Below, piece after piece: positions 1 through 31,280 of a DNA stretch of 40,937 bases. This DNA comes from Albugo candida (Eukaryota): NCBI GenBank assembly GCA_040437565.1, contig JBDOQK010000039.1:310001-350937 (forward strand), given 5' to 3'. Under the pieces are notes generated by a model. That model was given only the letters and a program-made list of their open reading frames with translations. It was not told the DNA's origin and searched no databases. The number at the start of each line of letters is the position of its first letter. Positions within the stretch are counted from its first letter, which is position 1. The translations under genes were made by a program, and so were the position numbers.

Positions 1-470
1 GATTGCTGTTGCACAACAGCAGTACAATAGTTACATGGCAATGACAGGGTTCGACCAAGTAGAACAACCAGCCACTTTTTCAACAAGGGAATTATAAATA
101 CGGCGATTATTGAGCCAACAAATGAAGACGTCGAGATAATGTTGTGTATAGAGCCACATAAATTTACGGTTTTGCCGGTAGTGTCGTAATTTGTATGCTA
201 CTCGAATGATTATCTCGTGTGTTACATTACTTTACGTAAATATGTAGCGTGTCATCGCATCATGTAGCAACTGCGTCGCGAGTAATGCATAGCAATGTAA
301 TTCTAGTTCACGTCGAACGTCTGCATTGCAAACATTCATTTTCCAAAAGGTCAAAGACTGCTCAACAGCATTATACTATCTCACTTTCTCACGTGATTTA
401 CCGGCTCTGCCCGAACACACTTTGTGTACCTTATCCAACCATTTGAAAAGAGTCTATTTCGCCGCATTGT

Positions 471-3400
471 ATGGCCATGATTGAGACTCTCACATCTACA
501 TCACTTGAAATCGGCAATGAAATTTGGATATCTGATCCAAAACAAGTTTGGCGCACTGTTAAAATAAAAAGAATTCACCAAAATGGCTTCGTTGTCGACG
601 TCGCTGGTGCGTACAAGACCGAAACTATCGATATTCGTGAAGCTGGGGGATTGTTCAAAGTGAACCCAAATGTTGTCGACGATATGACTGGTCTTTACTA
701 CATTCACGAAGCTGGTATACTACATAATCTGGCCATGCGATTGCGTCCTGAATGTTTGCGTCCATATACGTTGATGGCCAATGTATTGATTGCTGTGAAT
801 CCTTTGGTAAAAATTGTTGAACCCAAAGTGGAGGACTACATTAAAGCACAGTTGGGAGAATGCTCACCTCATCCTTATCTCATTGCGGAAATGGCATTCC
901 AGCAAATGATTTTGCAGAAGGAAAATGCTCAATCCCAGTCAATCGTTATTTCAGGGGAGTCAGGCGCAGGAAAAACAGAGACCTCGAAGGTTGTGTTACG
1001 TTTTTTGACGTCTCGGGAATATGTCTTTGCTGCAAGCAGCGAGCAATTGGTCAAGCTCCCAGCAACCAAATTGGCGGAAGTTGCGATGCCTGAGAAAGCT
1101 GATTCAATACAAAGCAGCTACGGGACTGAAATTGATAAGAGGTTATGGGACACTAATCCAATACTCGAGGCTTTCGGTAACGCGAAAACATCACGTAATC
1201 ACAATTCCTCTCGCTTTGGTAAGTACATGAATCTGCAATTTGATGATAAAAATTCCTTCAAGCTTTCGGCTGCGTTCATTGAGACATATCTGCTCGAGAA
1301 GTTCCGAGTAGTGGCACAGATCCCTGGAGAACGAAATTTTCATATCTTTTACTTTTTAATATCTGGAGCAGATGAAGAACTGCGACATGATCTCCGGCTA
1401 CATTCCGCAGAATCTTTCACATATTTGAATCGGAGTAATTGTATATCTGATCCGAACATTGATGACGAGATATTGTTTGATGAAGTCGTTAGCGCTATGA
1501 CGACAGTAAACATCGATTCAAGTATGCAAAAGGAAATATGGAAGATTTTGGCAGCTGTATTGCATCTCGGAAACATACAATTTCAATTAGCAGAGACTTC
1601 CGAAGGAGAGAGTGTCCAAGTTGCTGATCTGGACGCACTTGAGATTTGTGCTGAGTTACTGGGTGTGGACCCGGCCAACCTTTTTCGTGTCATCACGGAG
1701 CGAGAGATTGTCACTCGAGATGAGAAGATTTCGATAAAGAGAACTGTGAAAGAAGGTTGCCAAATTCGAGATACCATTGCCAAGTCAATTTATTCTCAGC
1801 TGTTCAAATGGATTGTATACAGAATTAACGTCACGCTTGGACGTAAAAGTCGGCCGCTTCCTTTTATCGGGGTGCTTGATATTTTTGGTTTCGAATCTTT
1901 TGAGAGAAATGATTTTGAACAGCTTTTGATCAATTTTGCCAGCGAGGCTTTACAAGCAACGTTCAATCAGCACGTCTTTGTTGCCGAACAAGATCTATTC
2001 AGGAAGGAGGGCATTCAGATCGGAACAATCGCGTGGCAGGATAATCGGGACTGCATCAATCTGATCACTCAAAAACTCGACGGGATATTACCACTGCTGG
2101 ATCAGGAGGCTAAGAATCCCAATCCGAGTGACAAAAAGTGGAATGCTACTTTGCATAAGACACATTGTGATCATTCGCACTTTTTACCCCCACACGAAAA
2201 AGACAAACAGTTTGTGTTTATCATAAAACACTTTGCAACGCATGTCCCCTATACAATCGGTAATTTCGTGGACAAAAACACGGATCTTATTCCTCAAGAC
2301 TTGGAGTTGTTGGTCAGATCGAGCTCGTCCCAATTATTGAGCACCTTGTTCGACTCAAAAATGGTAGTAGACCCGCAAACTAATTCTCAGAAAGAGCCGT
2401 TTTTTGATATGAAGACACTCGGAAAGAGTGTTTCTGCCAGCTTTTGCGACCAAATGCGAAATCTTGTTGATACTCTGAATTCGACGAGATGCAACTTTAT
2501 CCGATGCATCAAACCGAATTCCACAATGAAACCCAACAATTTCGATCCCGCATACGTTGTCAACCAACTTCGTTGCGCGGGAATGCTGGAGACTTGCGAA
2601 CTGCTCCAAGTGGGCCTTCCAACCCGAGTGACCTATGAAGAGATCTGCCGGATCTACAAACCTGCTTTACCTACAGCAGTAGCACCATTATTTGCCGCGT
2701 CCTCTGATAGAACGCTAACTGAAGCTATACTTTGGGCCTTCCGAGTGGACTCGGATGCCTATCACCTCGGAAGAACCAGAGTCTTCTTCAAGACAGGAAA
2801 AATTGCTTTGTTGGATGCTTTACTCACTGTCGATATGGAAAAAATGGGACCTTGGATTCTTTCTCGTCTACACAAATGGTTAGCAAGACGCCGGTGGCGA
2901 TACGCGACTGCAAAAGTTTATGGACTGCAAGCATTTAACTGGCTGCATGAGTACACAAGACAACGAAGACGAGCTGCTGTGAAAGTCCAAGCAATTTTGC
3001 GAATGGTTCAGTGTAGACGAGAGTTCCTGAGGCAACGAAATTTTCATCAGTACCTCCAAATGCGCAAGGTAACAACAAGAAAACAATTCAAACGAGCGAT
3101 GTATACCATTATTGCAAATAATGCTTTAGTGGAGCTCTGGTCGCGAGCAAAAACTCGCATCGAAATGGTTTGTAAAGTCTTCGCTTGTTTATTTGTCTAT
3201 GATTACTCACCTCCCAATCTCATTTGACGTAGCAACAAAAGCTGCAAACACAGTCAGCTGGTCTCATTCAAGCAGTTGCGCGTGGATATATAGTACGAAA
3301 AAGTTCAAAGAGTCAAAGCGTTCGAGTAAAGCAAGCCCGAGTAGGCTTGGCAGTTCAGGGAAAAACTACTGCCAAGGAACTAGAGAAAAAAATGACCGCT

Positions 3401-4903
3401 AGAAAGCGATGGCGCGTTGCTTACTGTGTAGTCAAAGTACAAAGCTACTTACAACAGCAAATGGTTTCTCGAAGTGCCGGACTACTGGCTTTGAAACAAT
3501 CCATCGTGGCTCGAAAAATTCAGCGGCAATATCGAATCTATTTGGCGCGTGCTGAGGAGCAACAGAAAACAACATTCAGAAGCGCTCAGACCGGTTCCGA
3601 AGTTGAATATGCCGCATCACAGGAACATGCTACTAGTGATGTCAAGTTGTCGCATGAAGAGGAGCTTCGTGATCTATATCGGTTACAAGATTTCAATGTG
3701 ACCAACCGTCTTAGTTCCCTTGGGCCCATGGCTACGGGAACTTTGGGAGAAGTTGGAACTGTTGGAGCACTTGGAACTGTCGAAGGTGTACATCATGACT
3801 TGAATGCGTATGAGCAAGATGCATTGAATGTCGATCCTACCAAAAACGGAGCTTATGGATCAAATGGTGTTCCCGGCTTCATGAAAAAACAGGATACATT
3901 GAAAAATGCCGATCTCAGCTGGGTTGCCGATGAAGGTCTGATTGAAGAAGGCCAGGGTGTTGCTGGGAATAGTTGCGGTGAAGAAGTGACTGAAACAAAA
4001 TGCGATTTAGACGGAGGAGGTGAAAAAACTTTGTACCGACCCTTGATGGCGGCTGAAGATGAAGCGCTCAATCCAATTGAATGCTTACAAGACTTTCCCA
4101 TTGGTCCACCTGTCCCTTACAAAGGTGGCATTTTCACATGCACATTGATTGGTCACAGAAAACAGCTAGATCAGGATTGGGGTGACGAGTATTTCGAATA
4201 CGTATTACGATGCACGTGGGGTCGTGATATACTCGAGCAATCAAAGACAGCTTGGCTTGTAGGTGGGAGATACAATGATTTTAATGTACTGCATCAAGAA
4301 TTGAAAGCAGCAGCTTCCGGTCATCGTAGAAAACGTGCTCCGTGGTTCCCTCGTTTTCCAAAACGTCATCCATTCTCAACGATGGTGGGGAAAAATCAAC
4401 GAGAACAATTTATCATCAAGCGCGAAAAAGAACTGAATCGATACATGACGCAGGTTTTGACGCAAATGCCAGATGCTTTACTCAATGTCCATTTGGATCG
4501 CTTTTTAAACCTTACGCTTCGAACACAGGATATCGGGGAGCGGGAGGCTTTTGCTGAAGCTCGAAAGCGATGGGAGGAGGAAGAACGACAAGCACTCGTG
4601 ACAGCAGCACATGCTGAACCTTTAAAGGATTCGGAGCTGCATGAGGTTGAACAACTGGTTCATCAATTATTACAGAAAATTATGCATGGAACTGGTGACC
4701 TTCGTCAGGCCACTGATCTTCAGGAAATGATTCATGCCGTCAAAGTCTTACAGCCTCGGGTCGCAGCATCAGCGCAAATAGGAGCTGGGGTTGATATGGA
4801 GCTGGTACCCTTGGCAATGCAGCTACAGGATGACATTCAAGATGCGTATAATCAATACAATGACGCATTATTGGCTGTACGACTTGGACATGATTTAAAT
4901 TAG
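471..4903 (+). CDS. Unconventional myosin, class-XXX-like (SH3-like N-terminus, motor, IQ neck, PX domain, GAT-like C-terminus); exons 471-3167 and 3233-4903, ~1455 aa
   Basis: P-loop GESGAGKT, switch I NHNSSRFGK, switch II DIFGFE, FIRCIKPN and converter LGRTRVFFK. A 65-nt phase-0 intron (GTTTGT...GACGTAG, 3168-3232) joins the two ORFs in frame and adds the IQ motif IQAVARGYIVRK. PX motifs GRYNDF..LHQEL, FPRFPKR and KREKELNRYM lie at ~4124-4513. Confidence 0.93.
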
Positions 4904-7900
4904 CTGGAAGTACCTCTGTCGAAGCGTGGTAGTTGAGAAGACCCGCTAAGAGATTTCGGCGTAGTTTCTCATCAATCTAGAAAAAATCTCGGTTGTTGTT
5001 TCATATTAGAGGCGGAATGAACGTTTCGCGATGAAGTGACTAGGAGATGTGCACTTTTATAGACGTAAACGCTGTAAAGTAAGCGTGAGCATAAAACTCA
5101 CTATTCACTTTCCAAGGGTAATGTGGTTGCTATAAAGATAAGTTTATGGAAGTGGAATTGTCTCCCTATGCATGATAGAAAAGTAATTGCACGTTGACTG
5201 GTTGCTCCAAATCTTAATTGATGGAGACTATTGGTCTCTGGCATGCTAATGTAAGAAATCGCCTGACCGGTGTTGTTGTCCCGTTCTATCGACTTTATTA
5301 TTCGAAACTAGTGACAAAATTTGCTCTAGCAACTTGTAACAAGGGACGTTAGCGTGTCTGCTGGATGAGCACCACCCTGGTCGAGCGATGCTTGAACATT
5401 TGAGCATTGGAGAATGGACCTTGTCGCACAGCTGGATAAGGCGATTTGAAGAAGATGCGAATCAAGTTAAGTCCTTCAAAAATTGAAGAAGGCCTCGCAA
5501 TGGAAGAAAAGAACGCCATATATAGATCGGTAATGAATACGAGGACGTGGAGGCTAAGGAACTTCTAAAAGATAGAGATGGTACTCGTAAAAACTTAAAG
5601 CTCGTTGAATGCATACGCCGCTAATTTATGGCTGGATAATGAAATAAGTCCATTTGGTTGTGCTTGATTTCATCACATAAGACTTCCAACCTGCTTTGTC
5701 AAGATACTTAGGCTTAGTAAACTGGTCGTGCACAAAGCTATACATTTGGCCAGTTACTGCTTCGGAAGTTTTCTTGACTCTCGAGCGCTTTGCAGCTGCT
5801 CGATGTCGATGTAGTGTACTAGTACTAGAGATGGCTGGCGCTTGTATCCAGCATCAGTATTGGATTCTGTTGACCAAAGCAGCGCGCTAATGTGACTTAA
5901 CACCATTCAATGTCACAAAGTGCTTCTTACATCAAAGTTTGTAGGAACTCAACAGGTGAATGCAGCGTAAGTTTGCAACCAATCTTTCGTTTGGCTTCGA
6001 GATATTGCCTCTTAAGGATACATACTATATAGATATTACGATATGATTTCGACCCGCTGAATTAGTTAATATGCGTCCCTTTGATCCTTGCTGTATGCTT
6101 CCATATCAATATCTCGCTCGAAGATATACTCAAAATAGAAACATGTGATTTGACCGCTTGGTATTCGATTAAGAGTCAACTGATTGAGACGTTTATCGAA
6201 GGTATCGCACACTTAGAGCTACAAGACAAAGTAAGCTACATCAATGTCGTTGGTACTTTCAGTGATGACGCTTTATTCTTTAGCAAACGTTTCTGGAGGT
6301 ACTTCGAATGGAGCTCAGTATATGGATTGATGATACCGCGATAATATGACTCATCATTCATAGCATTTTACTTTTCTGGGAAATGGCACTTGGTTTTACA
6401 TGGCCGAAACGGAAGGCAATTTTATGGTGCATAACTCATCAATCCAATTGAACAGGTTGCGCTGGTATCAGAAAATCAAAGTACTTGATATCCCAATCTG
6501 AGCGGTACACCAACAAGCCAATTCACAATATTCACAATATTCAGCAGCGACTCTACTTACGTATAAATCGGTCAATCAGGAATCAATCTATGAAGTTACC
6601 ATGCGGTTATGGTGTAGTTATACTTGATCGAATAGAATCTTCAGTGGCTAAAACCTCAATAAGGCACCGAGCAGCCTCACCCGCTATATCGACGAACACG
6701 ACACAGCTATGAAAGAGAGCTTATCGTTTCAAACCTAGTTGGGTCCTTGAACGCACTTGCATTAATATCACAATACATCGATTGCGGGAGAGTTAGACGC
6801 CCTTTTTTCGTTTGCTGCCCTATACAAAATCGCCCAATTACACTTGAAAAGCGTTATCACAAATTTCAGCCGCACGGCTCGTTTTACAATCACATGTGTG
6901 CACGAAAGCAGGCTTTGACTCTCTCAACAATATACTTGATTCCTACGCAATAACCAAAGAACCTATTTCCCAAGTAATGCAGATATTATTTTACTTATTT
7001 TATCTCCTATTCTAGCTCTATTTTCAAGTTTATTAAGATCCACCATACAGAATACTTTGCCAAGTCATACACAGAAATCCTTTGGGTTTTCAGCATCACA
7101 TAACAGACTTGTACACAAATGGCCATATGATATATGACACAAATTGTCAAGTCAAGATTTGATTGTGTAATTTGACTCACTTATAAATGATTAAGGCAAA
7201 GGCGTTTGAAGCTACCGACGATATTATAAAATATTCCGGCGAGAAATTTCATGTGGACCTGCTTAACGCGTCTTCTCGCATCCTCTTAATTGTATGAAAA
7301 GCGGCTAGAGGTAGCAATACATTGAGTGGACGCAAGTAGCTGTGGTTCTTGCTGCGCAACACGTCACGTCAAAGCGACCGAGCATCAGTAATTCAGTATG
7401 CCTCAACCAGGTATAAGATGAATATCATGCTAAGTAGGGGTGAACGAGGACAGCTTTTTTATGTATTATCCAAGTCAACGTGACAGAAGGTAAGCGCAGA
7501 AGTCGTGTATTTGAAAAGCATTTCCCTGCACCTTTTTTCGTCTCCTCCTCCTCCAATTTTTTCAGATGTTTTATCAGTCTCTGTTACTTCACTGGTGCAT
7601 GCAGTTTGGAAATGAATTTGTTTCAATTCAGCGAAGGCGGAATAATCAGGTGTGATGTTTCATTCTGACTCAGAACTACAATACTTCGTATATAAATTGC
7701 ATTCAACAGGAGCCCGAACCAAGTCGATTCATCCGCACAAATACTCACTTGAAAAGCTTTCCGTGCAACCATTATCGAACAATGATGGCCAGAAGGAGGT
7801 TGGTTCACGATATTCTGTGAGGACTACATGAATAAGAGATCCTCGAGGTCTGTTACAAATATATTGAGGTCGACGGATCTTCAGCGTACAACTTAGTGGA

Positions 7901-18196: not shown

Positions 18197-21057
18197 ATGT
18201 CAGAATTGGCTCGAAATTCGACGTCAAATGTCCTCTATGTTATCCAGCAGAGGCTGTCAAGCATCACAGACTCCCATTTACAATCAAAAGTTCTACTTGA
18301 TTACAGTGAATTATCACTCTCGCCAACAGTACCCACCAGTCAAGTTATCGACTTTTTGTTTTCATTTCTGGAGCAACATAATCAGAAGTCCATAGATACA
18401 ACGTGTGCGTATACAAGCTTATCTCTGACATAAAGTATTTTCACAGACTCAATATTTATTTTGAAAGCTCAAACGGAAGTGGAAACCATTCCGAGAAAGG
18501 CATTGGCGGGTATCACTTGTGACTTCCAATAGATACGCCACAAACCTTACTGACGCAGGTTGTTGAGAATTTTAGGCAAGAAGAACAATCAGGCAGAAGT
18601 GGTTATCGTGTACTCTATTTTGAAAGGATTACATGACATTCTCCAAGTAAAACCCGTGATCGTGAAACCAATGATTCAGGTTGAAGGAATGAAAACACAG
18701 CTGACAAGATGTTATAGCACATCTGAGGATTTCAAATTACGTTCTGAGACCTTGAAGATTGTACTGGATTGCTTGATGATAAGCAAACGAGAAGAAGAAG
18801 CACTGGAATTGGCATTACAATGTATGAGAGATTCCAGTCACCACCAGCATGAGATTGCTCTGCATGGGTTACTCAGATTGCTTGATGACGGTTACTGCCT
18901 TAATTCACATATCGAACAGACATTGGAAGCTGTGGCCATCTTACTTCATTCGAGAGAAAGCTCCAACCTGCAGATTATGGCCGCCCAAGTATTGATTGCA
19001 ATTGCCGAACAAAATCCAATGTCAGATATCAAACTGGCTATTTTGGAACAACACAAACCTCTCCCCGTGCCGGATGCAGTATTTCTACTGTTCGGACAAG
19101 GCCTTATCTCGATGTCGCCTATATCTCGCGCCTATATTGCGATTGCCGTTGCGACCATTGCAGACCTGATTAGCACTGGTGTTATTGAGGATTCCCTCCA
19201 ACGATCTCAGATTGATGAACGCGTTCACGATGATGGGATTGATACCTTGTTGCTGACTACGACAGGAAGCATGTTGACACTTCTCGAAGATCCGTCTGAC
19301 TTTGTTGCTGCTAAAGCTTCATATGCGGTTGGAAGATTGCTAACAAATTCAGACTGTAGTATTCGAGTCGTTGATCGATCGATAAAAAGTTTTTTTGAAG
19401 TGTTTGCTCGAGCCGCTTCTGGATCTTCAGATCAAGTAAACATTGGGATGGTTCTGGCCGCCCTGAAACAAGTACTAGTTTATCGAAATAATCGATTGAA
19501 ACTCACATACCTTCTGAAAATTGATCAAGTAAGACTTTTGTGCCGCTGATACTGATCTGAGTCTTCCCATTATTACAATTTGCACCTTTCAGATGACTTG
19601 TATCTTGTCATCTCTACCGGTTCCAAACATACAGCTTTTTGAGCTCCTCAGCTCGATACTTCAACTTTGTGATGTGATCAAAGGAGATGAATTGGATCGA
19701 CTGGTACTCAATCGAATCAGAATGCAGAGACATTGGCTTTTTGAAGATCTCGACCAAGAATTATTTGTAAGTCATGACGAGCAAGCATCTCTAATACGGA
19801 ACGTTCAAGCTTGGCATCGATTATTCGTCGAACACATTTGCCAGTCACCAGATGATGTTGCTAAATTGGGATCGTTCATGTGGCGAAGTGCTGAAATTTG
19901 CGATTCTCTATTACCTGCACCGGAACTATCCCTCTTGGTGTGTCATATAGCTGCCAAGAATACGCTACCTCAAGTAATCTGATAATTCATTATGATAGAA
20001 AAACTTATTCCGGCAGGAGAACGTTGTTTGCAGCTTTTTGCAGAGCGGAAAACTGCTTGATGCCCTCGACTCAAGATTATCCAAATTTAAAAAGGATGCG
20101 TCGTCATTCAAACCGTTTACATTGGTCGACTGGCAATCCGATGTGAGCGAAGACATTCCATACCTGGGGATAGATTGCATAAAGCAACTATTTCGACATT
20201 GTCGACCGCTAGCTGAGGCATGCAAATATTTCTATGTCAAGTCTGCTCTGGATAATCTGAAGTCTCGAACTACGTTGCTACAGGTAGAACATCTGTGACA
20301 ATGGTGCAATCACTAGCTTTATATACATTGATAGATGTATGGACAATGCTGTTTACTTATTGAAATGAGTAACTTCATCGAAGTTACCTCACTCGAACAA
20401 TTAGTTTCTGGAATCAAAAAGGCACGGGCTATACAGTCATGGCAAAAATCCGTTGTAGGAGACAAATTCGACTTGGACGACGCACGTGCTGGTATACAGC
20501 ACTTGATCACGTACATGAGCATCCTTCCCAGCAATTCACCGGAAGCACATATTCTTTGGCCTCTTGAAAAGCAGCAGGAATCGTTCGACACCCTTGCCCC
20601 TTATTTGCACCAAATGGAGGTTTCTTTCGTTATGAGGAACGTTCACGATGTCTCTCGTGTGTACATCAAGGTAGTTTGGTGAATTACCCCGAAATAGGAT
20701 ATCGAGAACGCTTACTGCTACTTCCAGGCTCAGCTTTGGGATGGGACCACTCAGTATCACAAAATTTCTCGAAATGCTTATCATTGGTATAAGCTCGATT
20801 CTTGCAAAGCTCAGTACTCAATCAGTTTCCCAGTCTCACAATCAGCGGATCCGGTGTGTGTAAAAATAATCGTTTGCATTCATCATCCAATCGGCTTTCT
20901 TACACCAGATGAGGTCAGTTAGCCATTAAACGTCCGGACAATGCGTGTATTTTGCCATTTACTGTTTCTGATTTAGGAAGAAGATCAATTCAATTTTTCC
21001 GATCTTGTACCGATATCGGTAGAAGTGAAATTTTTCTTGAAACAGAGACACAAATGA
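18197..21057 (+). CDS. INTS4: Integrator complex subunit 4-like HEAT-repeat protein; exons ~18197-18402, 18447-18509, 18559-19528, 19593-19973, 20017-20283, 20335-20670, 20728-20913, 20977-21057 (~829 aa)
   Basis: Seven GT-AG introns of 43-64 nt link the ORFs in frame. ALHGLLRLLDDG, PDAVFLLFGQGL...IEDSLQR and TGSMLTLLEDPSDFVAAKA match INTS4 blocks as I recall them (AIKAMLQLHERG, DDAFGKIC...LEQTLDKK, GAFVHGLEDEMYEVRIAA) in the same order, followed by a beta-rich C-terminus. The start codon and first two introns are least certain. Confidence 0.72.
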
Positions 21058-25750: not shown

Positions 25751-27297
25751 ATGCAGCGCTTCTTCTTTTGCGTTTTATTTCATCTATTCGCATCTATCAG
25801 CGCTGATAATGACACAACATCGTTCCAGTTTCATGTGTCGATGGCTTCTGTCAAAGAAGGGAACGTCTATCTGATTGACTGGGTCTACCCCGCGCCCGTA
25901 ATCACCAAAGGAGTGCTACCAGCACAAGAAGAATCAATCATTGCATTTGGTACCGCACTAAATTCACTTAATGTATACGTAAAGGGACGATTCAATGGTT
26001 TTGTTAGTCAAAATGACGAAAATTCTGAATTTGTGGCTTGCTATTCGTCAATTATTCCATTGAGCCAGTTGGAAGGTGCTTCAAGTGTGTATTACGCTTT
26101 GGTCCAATTCGATGCTGGAAAGGAAGCTACAAAGATTTCTGCAACGATTCAGTTTGAGGTTCCAAAACCCGCGGGTATGCGTTGGGCAGTGTTTGGCGAC
26201 ATGGGAAGTACTACACAGAAAAAAGCGTCTGGAATATCGCTTCCTGCCCTTCTTAACGATTTCAAGAAAGGATTGTTCCAAGGAATACTGAATGTTGGAG
26301 ACTTGGGATACGAACTAGTTGGAGCCAATGGGAAGAATTATATCGAGTCATTTGCAACAATGACACAGCATATTCCGATGCAAATTACAGCTGGAAACGT
26401 AAGTGCTTATTTCATAGAATCGGAACAGTCACTGAGTTCATGTTGTATTTGTAGCATGAATTTATGTACGCAATGAGTCCACTTTTCTCACTGCACAACT
26501 ACCGTACCCGTTTTGCGGGTATGGGTAACGGACCTGGAACTACGAGCGGGTCCAACAGCAGCCACTACTATTCGTTCGATTCGAATACAATTCATTTCAT
26601 ATTTCTCAATTCAGAAATATACGGAGATGAACCTTACGGCAACTATGCATTCGGTCAACCGGGTCAAATGCCTACCTGGGTTCTTAGTGAAGATACCCGG
26701 AACGCTGATGCTATCCTGCAACGCAACTGGCTCGCAAACGATTTGGCTTCTGTCGATCGGTCCAGAACCCCGTTCATCATCGTGTGTATGCATCGACCTC
26801 CATTCAATTGTCCTTGGCATGTGGAAGCCGAAGGTAATGTGTTTTCTCGAGACATCGTTCCGTTATTGGACCAGTACAAGGTCAACTTGATGATTACGGG
26901 TCACGAGCACACGTCCATGATTTTTGATGAAACAATGGTATTGAATGGAAGGTATCACTTTCCCAAGCTTATTATTGTGGGTGCGGCAGGCAACAATGAG
27001 TTTCTAAGAAGTCGGGCTACAATCAACACTGCTTCGTGGAATGAGACAGTTTTGATTGAAAAATATGGGTATGGATATTTGGAGGAAACTGAAAGTGGGT
27101 TGCAATTTTGTATTGGGTCAACAGCCTCAGGCGAGACAAAGAATCCGGTGTCTACCGATTGGACGCTCCAGTCTTGCACTACAATCCAAGTCACAAGCTC
27201 TCTGACCGGATCCGCCACGAACCCACCCGCAAACAAAGCTGTTGTAACGATGCAGCAAATGGAGAGTATGTGGACCACGTGGACCGGAAGTAAATGA
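25751..27297 (+). CDS. Secreted purple acid phosphatase (metallophosphoesterase); exons 25751-26398 and 26455-27297, ~496 aa
   Basis: Signal peptide MQRFFFCVLFHLFASISA. All five PAP motifs are present: GDMG, GDLGY, GN|HE (restored by splicing the 56-nt GTAAGT...TAG intron 26399-26454), VCMH and GHEH. Confidence 0.92.
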
Positions 27298-30647: not shown

Positions 30648-31280
30648 ATGCCTTCTTGGAATTTATGGAGCATGAAAGTAAGCTTGATCTTGAGTCTGAA
30701 TTACGCGAAGTCTGAGCCTGCGAGTGGAAACTTTATTTTCACAGAATCGTTCCCATTGCTCAATCCACATAAAGAGCACGTGAGACATGACATTGCTGAT
30801 CTCAAAGTGGGTGAATTGCCGACGACACTGAATGAAGGAGATCTCTGTCTAGTTCTAACCAATCCGTCAGAAAATGTCGTACGTCATCTCAGAGTCGTGG
30901 TGGAATCGATTCAAGATCAAGTTAAAAATGTCTCGGTGTCGGATGCGTTTCTTGACCGCATTTCGCTTGTGCAACCCATTGCTGAAATTATAGAAACAAA
31001 ACGTTTGATTTCATATTCAGCGACCTTTCTCACCATACTTCTCAATATTGGAAAAATATACAGCAAGTACGCCCCATACGAAACCTTTGCGAAGGCGGTC
31101 GAGCAACAAAATCGAGTCTATTTGACCGAGAGTCCAGCGTCCATGGATAAAGTAAAGCTGTTCGGAAAATTTCGGCTGCACGAGAAAAGCACTTATTCGT
31201 TTCGCGACTATGAAATATATGTCGAGAAATGGACACCCCCTCGTTCTGATCGTCTACATGTCTTTAACCAGGAGAAGTAA
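30648..31280 (+). CDS. Hypothetical 210-aa protein, possibly secreted
   Basis: ATG-initiated uninterrupted ORF, much longer than background ORFs, with a short hydrophobic N-terminus (MKVSLILSLNYAKS). No recognised domain. Confidence 0.5.
   Translation: MPSWNLWSMKVSLILSLNYAKSEPASGNFIFTESFPLLNPHKEHVRHDIADLKVGELPTTLNEGDLCLVLTNPSENVVRHLRVVVESIQDQVKNVSVSDAFLDRISLVQPIAEIIETKRLISYSATFLTILLNIGKIYSKYAPYETFAKAVEQQNRVYLTESPASMDKVKLFGKFRLHEKSTYSFRDYEIYVEKWTPPRSDRLHVFNQEK

Follow-up and report, generated by a model that had tools for sequence, protein, structure and literature searches.

The stretch of DNA analysed here, called the window, comprises 40,937 nucleotides of Albugo candida (assembly GCA_040437565.1, contig JBDOQK010000039.1, positions 310,001 to 350,937 of the forward strand) and contains on its plus strand, between positions 471 and 4903, a myosin gene whose spliced product is 1455 amino acids long. 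The features of this protein are best explained by a class XXX motor that would travel toward actin's minus end, with a single reverse gear of the myosin VI kind and a long lever arm in which three sites of the Ca2+-calmodulin type alternate with three IQ motifs (probability roughly 0.7). The original prediction, made from the letters of the window, had proposed a lever built of three successive modules, each consisting of a sequence like insert-2 of myosin VI and an IQ motif. According to our analysis, one true homologue of insert-2 follows the converter, and what recurs along the arm is its distal, calmodulin-type half. Residues are numbered from the methionine at ATG 471, and published work is cited by identifier. 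The parts of the lever, in window positions, are as follows.

2832 to 2882, plus strand: proximal insert-2 homologue (D788-L804), with a helix break at T786-D788, occurring once (AlphaFold2 model; VIA-align overlay; HHalign 74% to the proximal segment of myosin VI including the last converter helix)
2883 to 2945, plus strand: unit 1, calmodulin-type motif homologous to distal insert-2 (basic 1-8-14: W809, V816, F822; motif in 24 of 24 orthologues, in Trp register with myosin VI and VI-like proteins)
2985 to 3020, plus strand: IQ motif 1 (Q840; PF00612 E=0.0042, below cut-off; HHalign 97.9% to the myosin VI IQ)
3075 to 3140, plus strand: unit 2, distal motif only (1-8-14: F873, I880, L886; degenerate; matrix scan p=0.007; HHalign 95.8% to unit 1)
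3266 to 3301, plus strand: IQ motif 2 (Q912; PF00612 E=7.8e-5 for exon 2; HHalign 95.7% to the myosin VI IQ)
3398 to 3451, plus strand: unit 3, distal motif only (basic 1-8-14: W959, V966, L972; matrix scan p=0.003; predicted calmodulin complex 0.72)
3518 to 3550, plus strand: IQ motif 3 (Q996; second Pfam IQ stretch; HHalign 69.9%; spacing), here without the charged helix found ahead of it in orthologues

Insert-2 is the element that reverses the direction of myosin VI (10.1101/078626; PMC5762158; PMC13448217). In the window protein, the neck between converter and first IQ holds an insert of 43 residues, and the distance from a converter glycine to the glutamine of the first IQ is 64 residues in all 24 full-length orthologues (7 of the 31 matches were dropped as truncated or fused). 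The same distance is 60 in 101 of 118 myosin VI sequences and 21-22 in seven of nine ordinary myosins of this genome; in the remaining two, the IQ was found by inspection at the same place as in the other seven. The best matches of the neck in the Protein Data Bank (PDB) are myosin VI chains (8w41, E=4.8e-7; 2bki, E=2.5e-6) and extend over the converter, the insert, and the IQ, interrupted by three short gaps totalling 4 residues, such that the almost ungapped alignment that had been claimed is roughly right; all stretches quoted for it are present at their positions. The insert alone (47 amino acids, taken without converter and IQ) scores above shuffled sequences against three of four myosin VI proteins (z 3.5-5.5, 11-14 identities; Xenopus reaches only z 1.7 with 7 identities) and against all five class VI-like protist proteins (z 5.4-7.0), and z is 0.2-2.2 for the equivalent site in eight ordinary myosins of this genome. 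Spacing, PDB matches, and these z scores, together with the predicted structure, thus back the proposed homology. The absence of insert-1 was likewise confirmed: the motor aligns without gaps to myosin VI constructs from which insert-1 had been deleted, and these are its four best PDB matches.

Concerning the course of the lever, residues 689-869 were modelled with AlphaFold2 from an alignment of 104 sequences without named class VI members, with a predicted local distance difference test score (pLDDT) of 93.3. In this model the last converter helix stops at L785, is broken at T786-D788 (model residues 98-100), and is followed by a new helix from M789, which continues through the insert and IQ1 as one helix to residue 868, 5 residues before the anchor of unit 2. 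In a Foldseek search with the model, ranks 1-23 are all myosin VI (root-mean-square deviation 5.0-7.7 Å), and the class II and V rows shown lie at 11.8-21.2 Å. The top 20 rows of VIA-align are also all myosin VI, with 126 residues of 8w41 superposed at 2.6 Å (Z 11.9, model residues 28-158 on chain residues 705-830), whereas 27 of the 28 non-VI rows end at model residues 100-107 and the twenty-eighth extends further only at 12.4 Å. The proximal insert is thus predicted to follow the myosin VI path round the converter, and the lever to point the myosin VI way instead of running straight; on this modelled geometry the motor probably moves toward the minus (pointed) end of actin.

To examine the repeat along the arm, 50 non-redundant unit-1 segments, excluding those of the window protein and its closest match, were combined into a matrix, with p-values taken against shuffled maxima. 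In the window neck, units 2 and 3 are the top two sites, and so they are in all 24 orthologues, with both at p<=0.007 in 22 of them (the exceptions have 0.060 and 0.057). No extra unit was found by the same scan in two single-unit paralogs and one myosin VI. The distance between the first Trp positions is 64 residues from unit 1 to unit 2 in 24 of 24 and 86 residues from unit 2 to unit 3 in 21 of 24 orthologues. The three distal motifs match each other by HHalign at 95.7-95.9% over 27-29 ungapped columns, whereas IQ controls remain at <=1.5% in five of six cases and reach 14.7% in the sixth; since the HHalign segments were cut in register by hand, the blind matrix scan carries more weight. What is repeated measures about 22-30 amino acids and is not the whole insert: compared with the proximal half in unit 1 or in myosin VI, the stretches preceding units 2 and 3 reach <=2%. 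The internal repeat that had been suspected therefore exceeds chance, and the threefold recurrence stands for the distal calmodulin-type motif; for complete modules of insert-2 and IQ it does not. Because the proximal half is unrepeated and the helix runs unbroken to residue 868, the arm has one reverse gear and two additional putative light-chain sites, not three gears.

The 1-8-14 pattern (defined in Table 2 of PMC7072818) is present at units 1, 2, and 3 in 24, 21, and 24 of the 24 orthologues, respectively, and its basic form in 24, 8, and 21. Apart from unit 1, there are 1.25 basic sites per neck, compared with 0.054 in shuffled sequences. In most orthologues the anchors of unit 2 are Trp or Phe. 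Myosin VI carries the same anchors at 1 and 14 in 117 of 118 sequences, and VI-like proteins are intermediate. The units may also resemble the calmodulin site of myosin light-chain kinase. In a search of the PDB with a profile of eight unit sequences, no match was obtained at E<=10. For unit 3, taken without its IQ, a complex with one of this genome's own calmodulins and four Ca ions was predicted alongside three controls; it reached an ipSAE of 0.72 as against 0.02 for the best control (51 of the 78 solved pairs and 2 of the 108 mismatched ones attain the ipSAE mark), with W959 facing the C-lobe, runs sharing at least 95% of contacts, and a partner pLDDT of at least 68. This prediction supports calmodulin binding by unit 3.

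From these features a working scheme may be drawn. The break at T786-D788 would end the last converter helix, and the proximal insert would wrap the converter and turn the lever as in myosin VI, so that the motor would step toward the minus end. The distal half of the insert would bind Ca2+-calmodulin through its 1-8-14 motif, and units 2 and 3 would provide extra calmodulin sites alternating with the IQ sites. Together with the intervening charged helices, this could give an arm of roughly 200 residues with up to six light chains, which the extra units might stiffen or regulate without redirecting it. With less certainty, the PX tail might tie the motor to phosphoinositide membranes, and endocytic vesicles might be pulled or anchored inward, as by myosin VI, without the gating by insert-1.

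Several observations weigh against this reading of a reversed, calmodulin-bearing arm. AlphaFold2 was trained with myosin VI structures, such that the model is not independent of the likeness to them; about a dozen of the 104 alignment rows look class VI-like, two of which (P0194 and relatives of P0237) group with class VI in trees; and the neck model stands without a control fold of an ordinary myosin. A first model of 900 residues from 39 close homologues had a pLDDT of only 56.6, with the converter under 50, and was not used for the direction. Among the non-VI rows of VIA-align, several PDB chains have no lever and cannot align further, although many others do have one. The proximal insert also aligns without gaps to the first IQ of myosin Va, and the spacing from converter glycine to Trp is 27, the same as in myosin Va (26 in myosin VI). 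The pattern given for insert-2 of myosin VI is 1-6-14 (PMC4914028), and unit 1 fits it in none of the 24 orthologues; by HHalign profile, the distal motifs are only weakly similar to the distal insert of myosin VI (27%, 33%, and 2% for units 1, 2, and 3). Calmodulin-peptide pairs are textbook complexes, whose score may reflect memory, and the ipSAE mark is uncalibrated for peptides, with controls other than matched basic helices. The branch that unites classes VI and XXX in the tree described below is unstarred and the outgroup narrow. Finally, the window copy has a Ser at an otherwise invariant Asn of the relay helix (1 of 39 proteins; window about 1941-1943), where 38 of the 39 aligned class XXX proteins, including that of Albugo laibachii, retain Asn.

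The last point bears on the copy itself, an Albugo paralog that evolves faster and has a shortened arm with worn units 2 and 3. Its branch is longer than that of the canonical paralog, as is that of its A. laibachii match, and in the matrix scan its units 2 and 3 score 8-9 versus mostly 12-32 in orthologues. Unit 3 is separated from its IQ by 24 residues here, as against 51-65 for 17 of the 23 orthologues, the values of the remaining six being an artefact of the pattern. Because the charged helix before IQ3 was lost, the compact appearance of motif and IQ at unit 3 is a local deletion; a second intron as cause of the short spacer was ruled out by a contig with a single joint (run X1, see below). 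It could thus be supposed that, within a family whose lever is reversed, this copy is a weakened motor or a tether with vestigial units 2 and 3, and that transport is carried out by the canonical paralog (L017/L038) present in the same genome. We regard this as unlikely, since the reading frame is unbroken, with splicing seen in a probable RNA contig, the nucleotide-binding motifs are intact, the units are spaced (64 and 86 residues) as in the orthologues, and the 1-8-14 anchors are retained, with unit 3 passing the complex prediction.

Unlikely to a similar degree is that the insert consists of a degenerate IQ1 and a non-IQ calmodulin site on the straight lever of an ordinary plus-end myosin. 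The two likenesses to myosin Va given above would be expected in that case, as would the basic residues of the IQ register, which are retained. However, glutamine is found at the IQ glutamine position in none of 24 orthologues (21 have V and 3 have L), the glycine position holds K in all 24, and the linker carries a proline in 22 of 24 orthologues and in none of nine ordinary myosins; IQ motifs are described as free of proline (PMC4914028). The modelled helix break and its overlay on myosin VI only are also difficult to reconcile with a straight lever.

It is quite improbable that units 2 and 3 are convergent calmodulin sites in a basic helical neck and were not copied from the insert. Motifs of the basic 1-8-14 type are short and frequent in calmodulin targets, and the offsets of the extra motifs differ by sub-clade (53; 64 and 150; 112 and 167 residues past the first Trp), which would suit independent origins. 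Yet letters other than the anchors also coincide between the units, with Ala at -3, 4, and 10 and with Gln or Asn around 11-12, and the ungapped profile matches of about 96% stand against the low values of the IQ controls. The functional reading is the same whether units 2 and 3 were copied or are convergent. Finally, three complete reverse-gear modules with the lever bent at each, the strict version of the original prediction, are very improbable: although in the window protein an IQ comes after every motif, and unit 1 plus IQ1 matches unit 2 plus IQ2 at 97.1% with an 8-residue gap (HHalign), the proximal half is unrepeated, copies of it would have no converter to pack on, the single helix reaches to just ahead of the unit 2 anchor in a model extending to residue 869, and in most orthologues unit 3 lies far from its IQ.

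The window protein belongs to the oomycete class XXX myosins with a PX tail, where the class name follows from the architecture, no reference labelled Myo30 being included in the tree. The nearest named relative is the A. laibachii protein (78% across the neck); after it come many oomycete proteins with motor and PX domains. A C-terminal PX domain (E=1.5e-9), IQ motifs, and, in the model, an N-terminal SH3-like beta domain are all present, and this domain architecture matches that described for class XXX (PMC2375034; PMC3942036). A tree of motor domains was built from 35 proteins, with ten other myosins of the same genome as outgroup; 28 of 63 prepared rows were left out, partial length or odd make-up being among the reasons. 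The window protein lies inside a 100/100 clade with the oomycete PX-tail proteins (class XXX and relatives). Class VI proper forms a 100/100 clade without it and, together with VI-like PH/RUN proteins, a 100/96 clade. The two larger clades are joined at 93/87 (93 and 87 in quick trees), in agreement with the placement of class XXX near class VI that had been assumed. There is moderate support that insert-2-like necks mark a wide protist clade sister to class VI, and a single origin of the insert across both clades is compatible with the tree; the deep relatives of class VI are debated (PMC3942036 for, PMC5583752 against). One protein labelled as Batrachochytrium salamandrivorans (P0203) nests inside the class XXX clade, for which mislabelling or contamination is likely.

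A wide search of 1.84 billion representatives gave 86 matches, most of them with an insert-2-like neck. Extra copies of the motif were found in 15 of 49 scanned relatives, at offsets of 53, 64, or 112/167, and in 1 of 116 myosin VI sequences used as control; one carrier is the alga Chrysophaeum taylorii. Several fragments (P0196, P0198, P0206, P0214, and similar ones) have a proximal insert-like stretch followed directly by an alanine-rich charged helix, with neither calmodulin motif nor IQ, and may possibly represent reversed levers free of light chains. Because this group keeps the proximal half without the calmodulin motif, the view of two separable insert halves fits.

Within the A. candida genome there are at least four insert-bearing class XXX paralogs among 34 motor-domain matches in all. 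Besides the window gene these include L017, L018, and L019, of which one has three units, one a single unit, and one belongs to a third sub-clade, with units at different offsets in its relatives. Elsewhere in the genome (G000:C68:128759-147873), five intronless calmodulin paralogs of 149 amino acids each (L001-L004 and L006) are clustered in roughly 20 kb of sequence, and a myosin gene (L040) lies some 4 kb beyond; some of these calmodulins may be dedicated light chains.

The remaining features of the myosin gene, from the start ATG at 471 to the stop ending at 4903, are as follows.

471 to 3167, plus strand: exon 1 (Met1 to residue 899), encoding an SH3-like beta domain at the N-terminus and then motor, converter, insert, IQ1, and unit 2 motif (open reading frame, AlphaFold2 model, Pfam)
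675 to 2792, plus strand: myosin motor domain (PF00063, E=6e-202) with intact P-loop, switch I, and switch II motifs, without insert-1 (ungapped alignment to myosin VI deleted for insert-1)
3168 to 3232, plus strand: intron of 65 nucleotides, GT-AG, phase 0 (absent from one contig of X1, present in contigs of X10 and X11)
3233 to 4903, plus strand: exon 2 (residues 900-1455 and stop; open reading frame and contig joint)
4238 to 4510, plus strand: PX domain (PF00787, E=1.5e-9)
4655 to 4870, plus strand: C-terminal helical region with a weak GAT-like signal, a lead only (PF03127, E=0.055, below cut-off)

The strands of the N-terminal beta domain lie at residues 18-55 in the model, and Pfam gives no match for this domain. 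Concerning the intron, contigs from 4 of the 11 listed sequencing runs were compared with the window. One contig of run X1, whose RNA nature is a guess as none of the listed runs is recorded as RNA, spans 300-4987 and lacks exactly the 65 bases of the proposed intron, with no other joint; contigs of X10 and X11 carry the intron unspliced, and coverage in X5 is too patchy for a call. On the basis of the single X1 contig, the intron is probably spliced out in RNA. The reading frame of the paralog L017 also breaks right after unit 2, and four database proteins (P0003, P0011, P0015, and P0028) terminate just past unit 2, at the site of the window intron. Because they end where this intron lies, a conserved intron position, with truncated gene calls, is suggested.

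In the tail, the GAT-like signal recurs in the window protein and 6 of 12 orthologues at E 0.02-0.055, with 14-16 bits versus a cut-off of 31, and a PDB search with the C-terminal region returned designed helical proteins only, with no relevant match. If the signal were real, the motor would contain a TOM1-like cargo module within its own tail; TOM1 is a partner of myosin VI (PMC10593786). In the ESM Atlas, the neck falls into generic myosin/IQ clusters only and the tail into a PX cluster at 0.75. In the motor domain, a Glu lies 16 residues ahead of a conserved upper-50K motif (window about 1722-1724) and is near-invariant in the family; by the TEDS rule, we take it to make phosphorylation unnecessary there. 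In run X11, from a diverged strain or a relative, 6 bases are inserted in frame at 3627, within the low-complexity tail, and 8 bases are deleted at 4978, downstream of the stop. Elsewhere in the window, the open reading frame at 26464-27297 matches a calcineurin-like phosphoesterase (E=2.4e-6), and those of at least 200 amino acids at 18671-19549, 25751-26476, and 30648-31280 gave no match in a Pfam scan.

A literature search, covering mostly open papers and few supplements, yielded no paper on insert-2, direction, or repeat in class XXX; the triple repeat had also been unfamiliar to the original prediction. Insert-2-like myosins with a predicted minus-end direction outside animals are already in print, namely Plasmodium MyoJ and MyoK (PMC13448217), and because predicted reversed levers have been reported there, the present finding is less of a surprise. 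Myosin VI is still called the only minus-end actin motor (PMC10593786), such that the class XXX proteins, if they are reversed, would form a second minus-end family that is directly testable. Because the window motor lacks insert-1, it offers a natural experiment on what reversal requires. The alternation of two kinds of calmodulin sites points to a novel means of constructing a long arm and perhaps of regulating it by calcium. A minus-end motor with a PX tail, which would differ from the myosins VIII and XI of plants, might also serve to carry vesicles inward in oomycetes. More tentatively, with odds slightly short of even, the reverse gear may be ancestral to a pan-eukaryotic supergroup (class VI, the VI-like PH/RUN myosins, class XXX with its stramenopile relatives, and probably MyoJ/K), in which case minus-end myosins would be common in protists, and oomycetes and some algae would have repeatedly copied the calmodulin half into a calcium-tunable lever of undescribed design.

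The organization of the window protein is similar to that of myosin VI, which provides the best PDB match for both motor and neck: an insert separates the converter from the IQ and is predicted to take the same path, and the Trp or large hydrophobic anchors at 1 and 14 are in register. Despite this similarity, the window protein differs in lacking insert-1, in its 1-8-14 instead of 1-6-14 motif, in the threefold occurrence of this motif, and in its three IQs. The extension of the lever by a three-helix bundle is not apparent (Pfam MYO6_lever only below threshold at E=0.28, profile positions 9-61), a PX domain stands in place of the cargo-binding domain of myosin VI, for which Pfam gave no match in the window protein, and class XXX forms a separate 100/100 clade. 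The VI-like PH/RUN myosins of Capsaspora, Fonticula, Stygamoeba, and other protists share the insert-2-like neck, with a distal motif intermediate between classes VI and XXX, whereas they group with class VI (100/96) and have no PX domain in the two proteins scanned. Apicomplexan MyoJ and MyoK, which stand outside our motor tree, also possess an insert-2-like sequence after the converter, and their AlphaFold-3 converter-necks align with minus-end motors, the direction being predicted (PMC13448217) and, for Plasmodium, elsewhere called unclear (PMC6851706); they differ in lineage and tails, and the accessible published account contains no repeat (PMC13448217). Concerning Ca2+-calmodulin targets of the basic 1-8-14 or 1-5-8-14 kind, the units conform to the motif definition (PMC7072818) and lie inside a lever arm. 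With class XXX (Myo30) the window protein has motor, IQ, and PX in common; the accessible published descriptions of this class are without insert-2, non-IQ calmodulin sites, or direction, whereas the window sub-clade possesses three IQs and three 1-8-14 motifs within the region annotated as coiled coil in class XXX.

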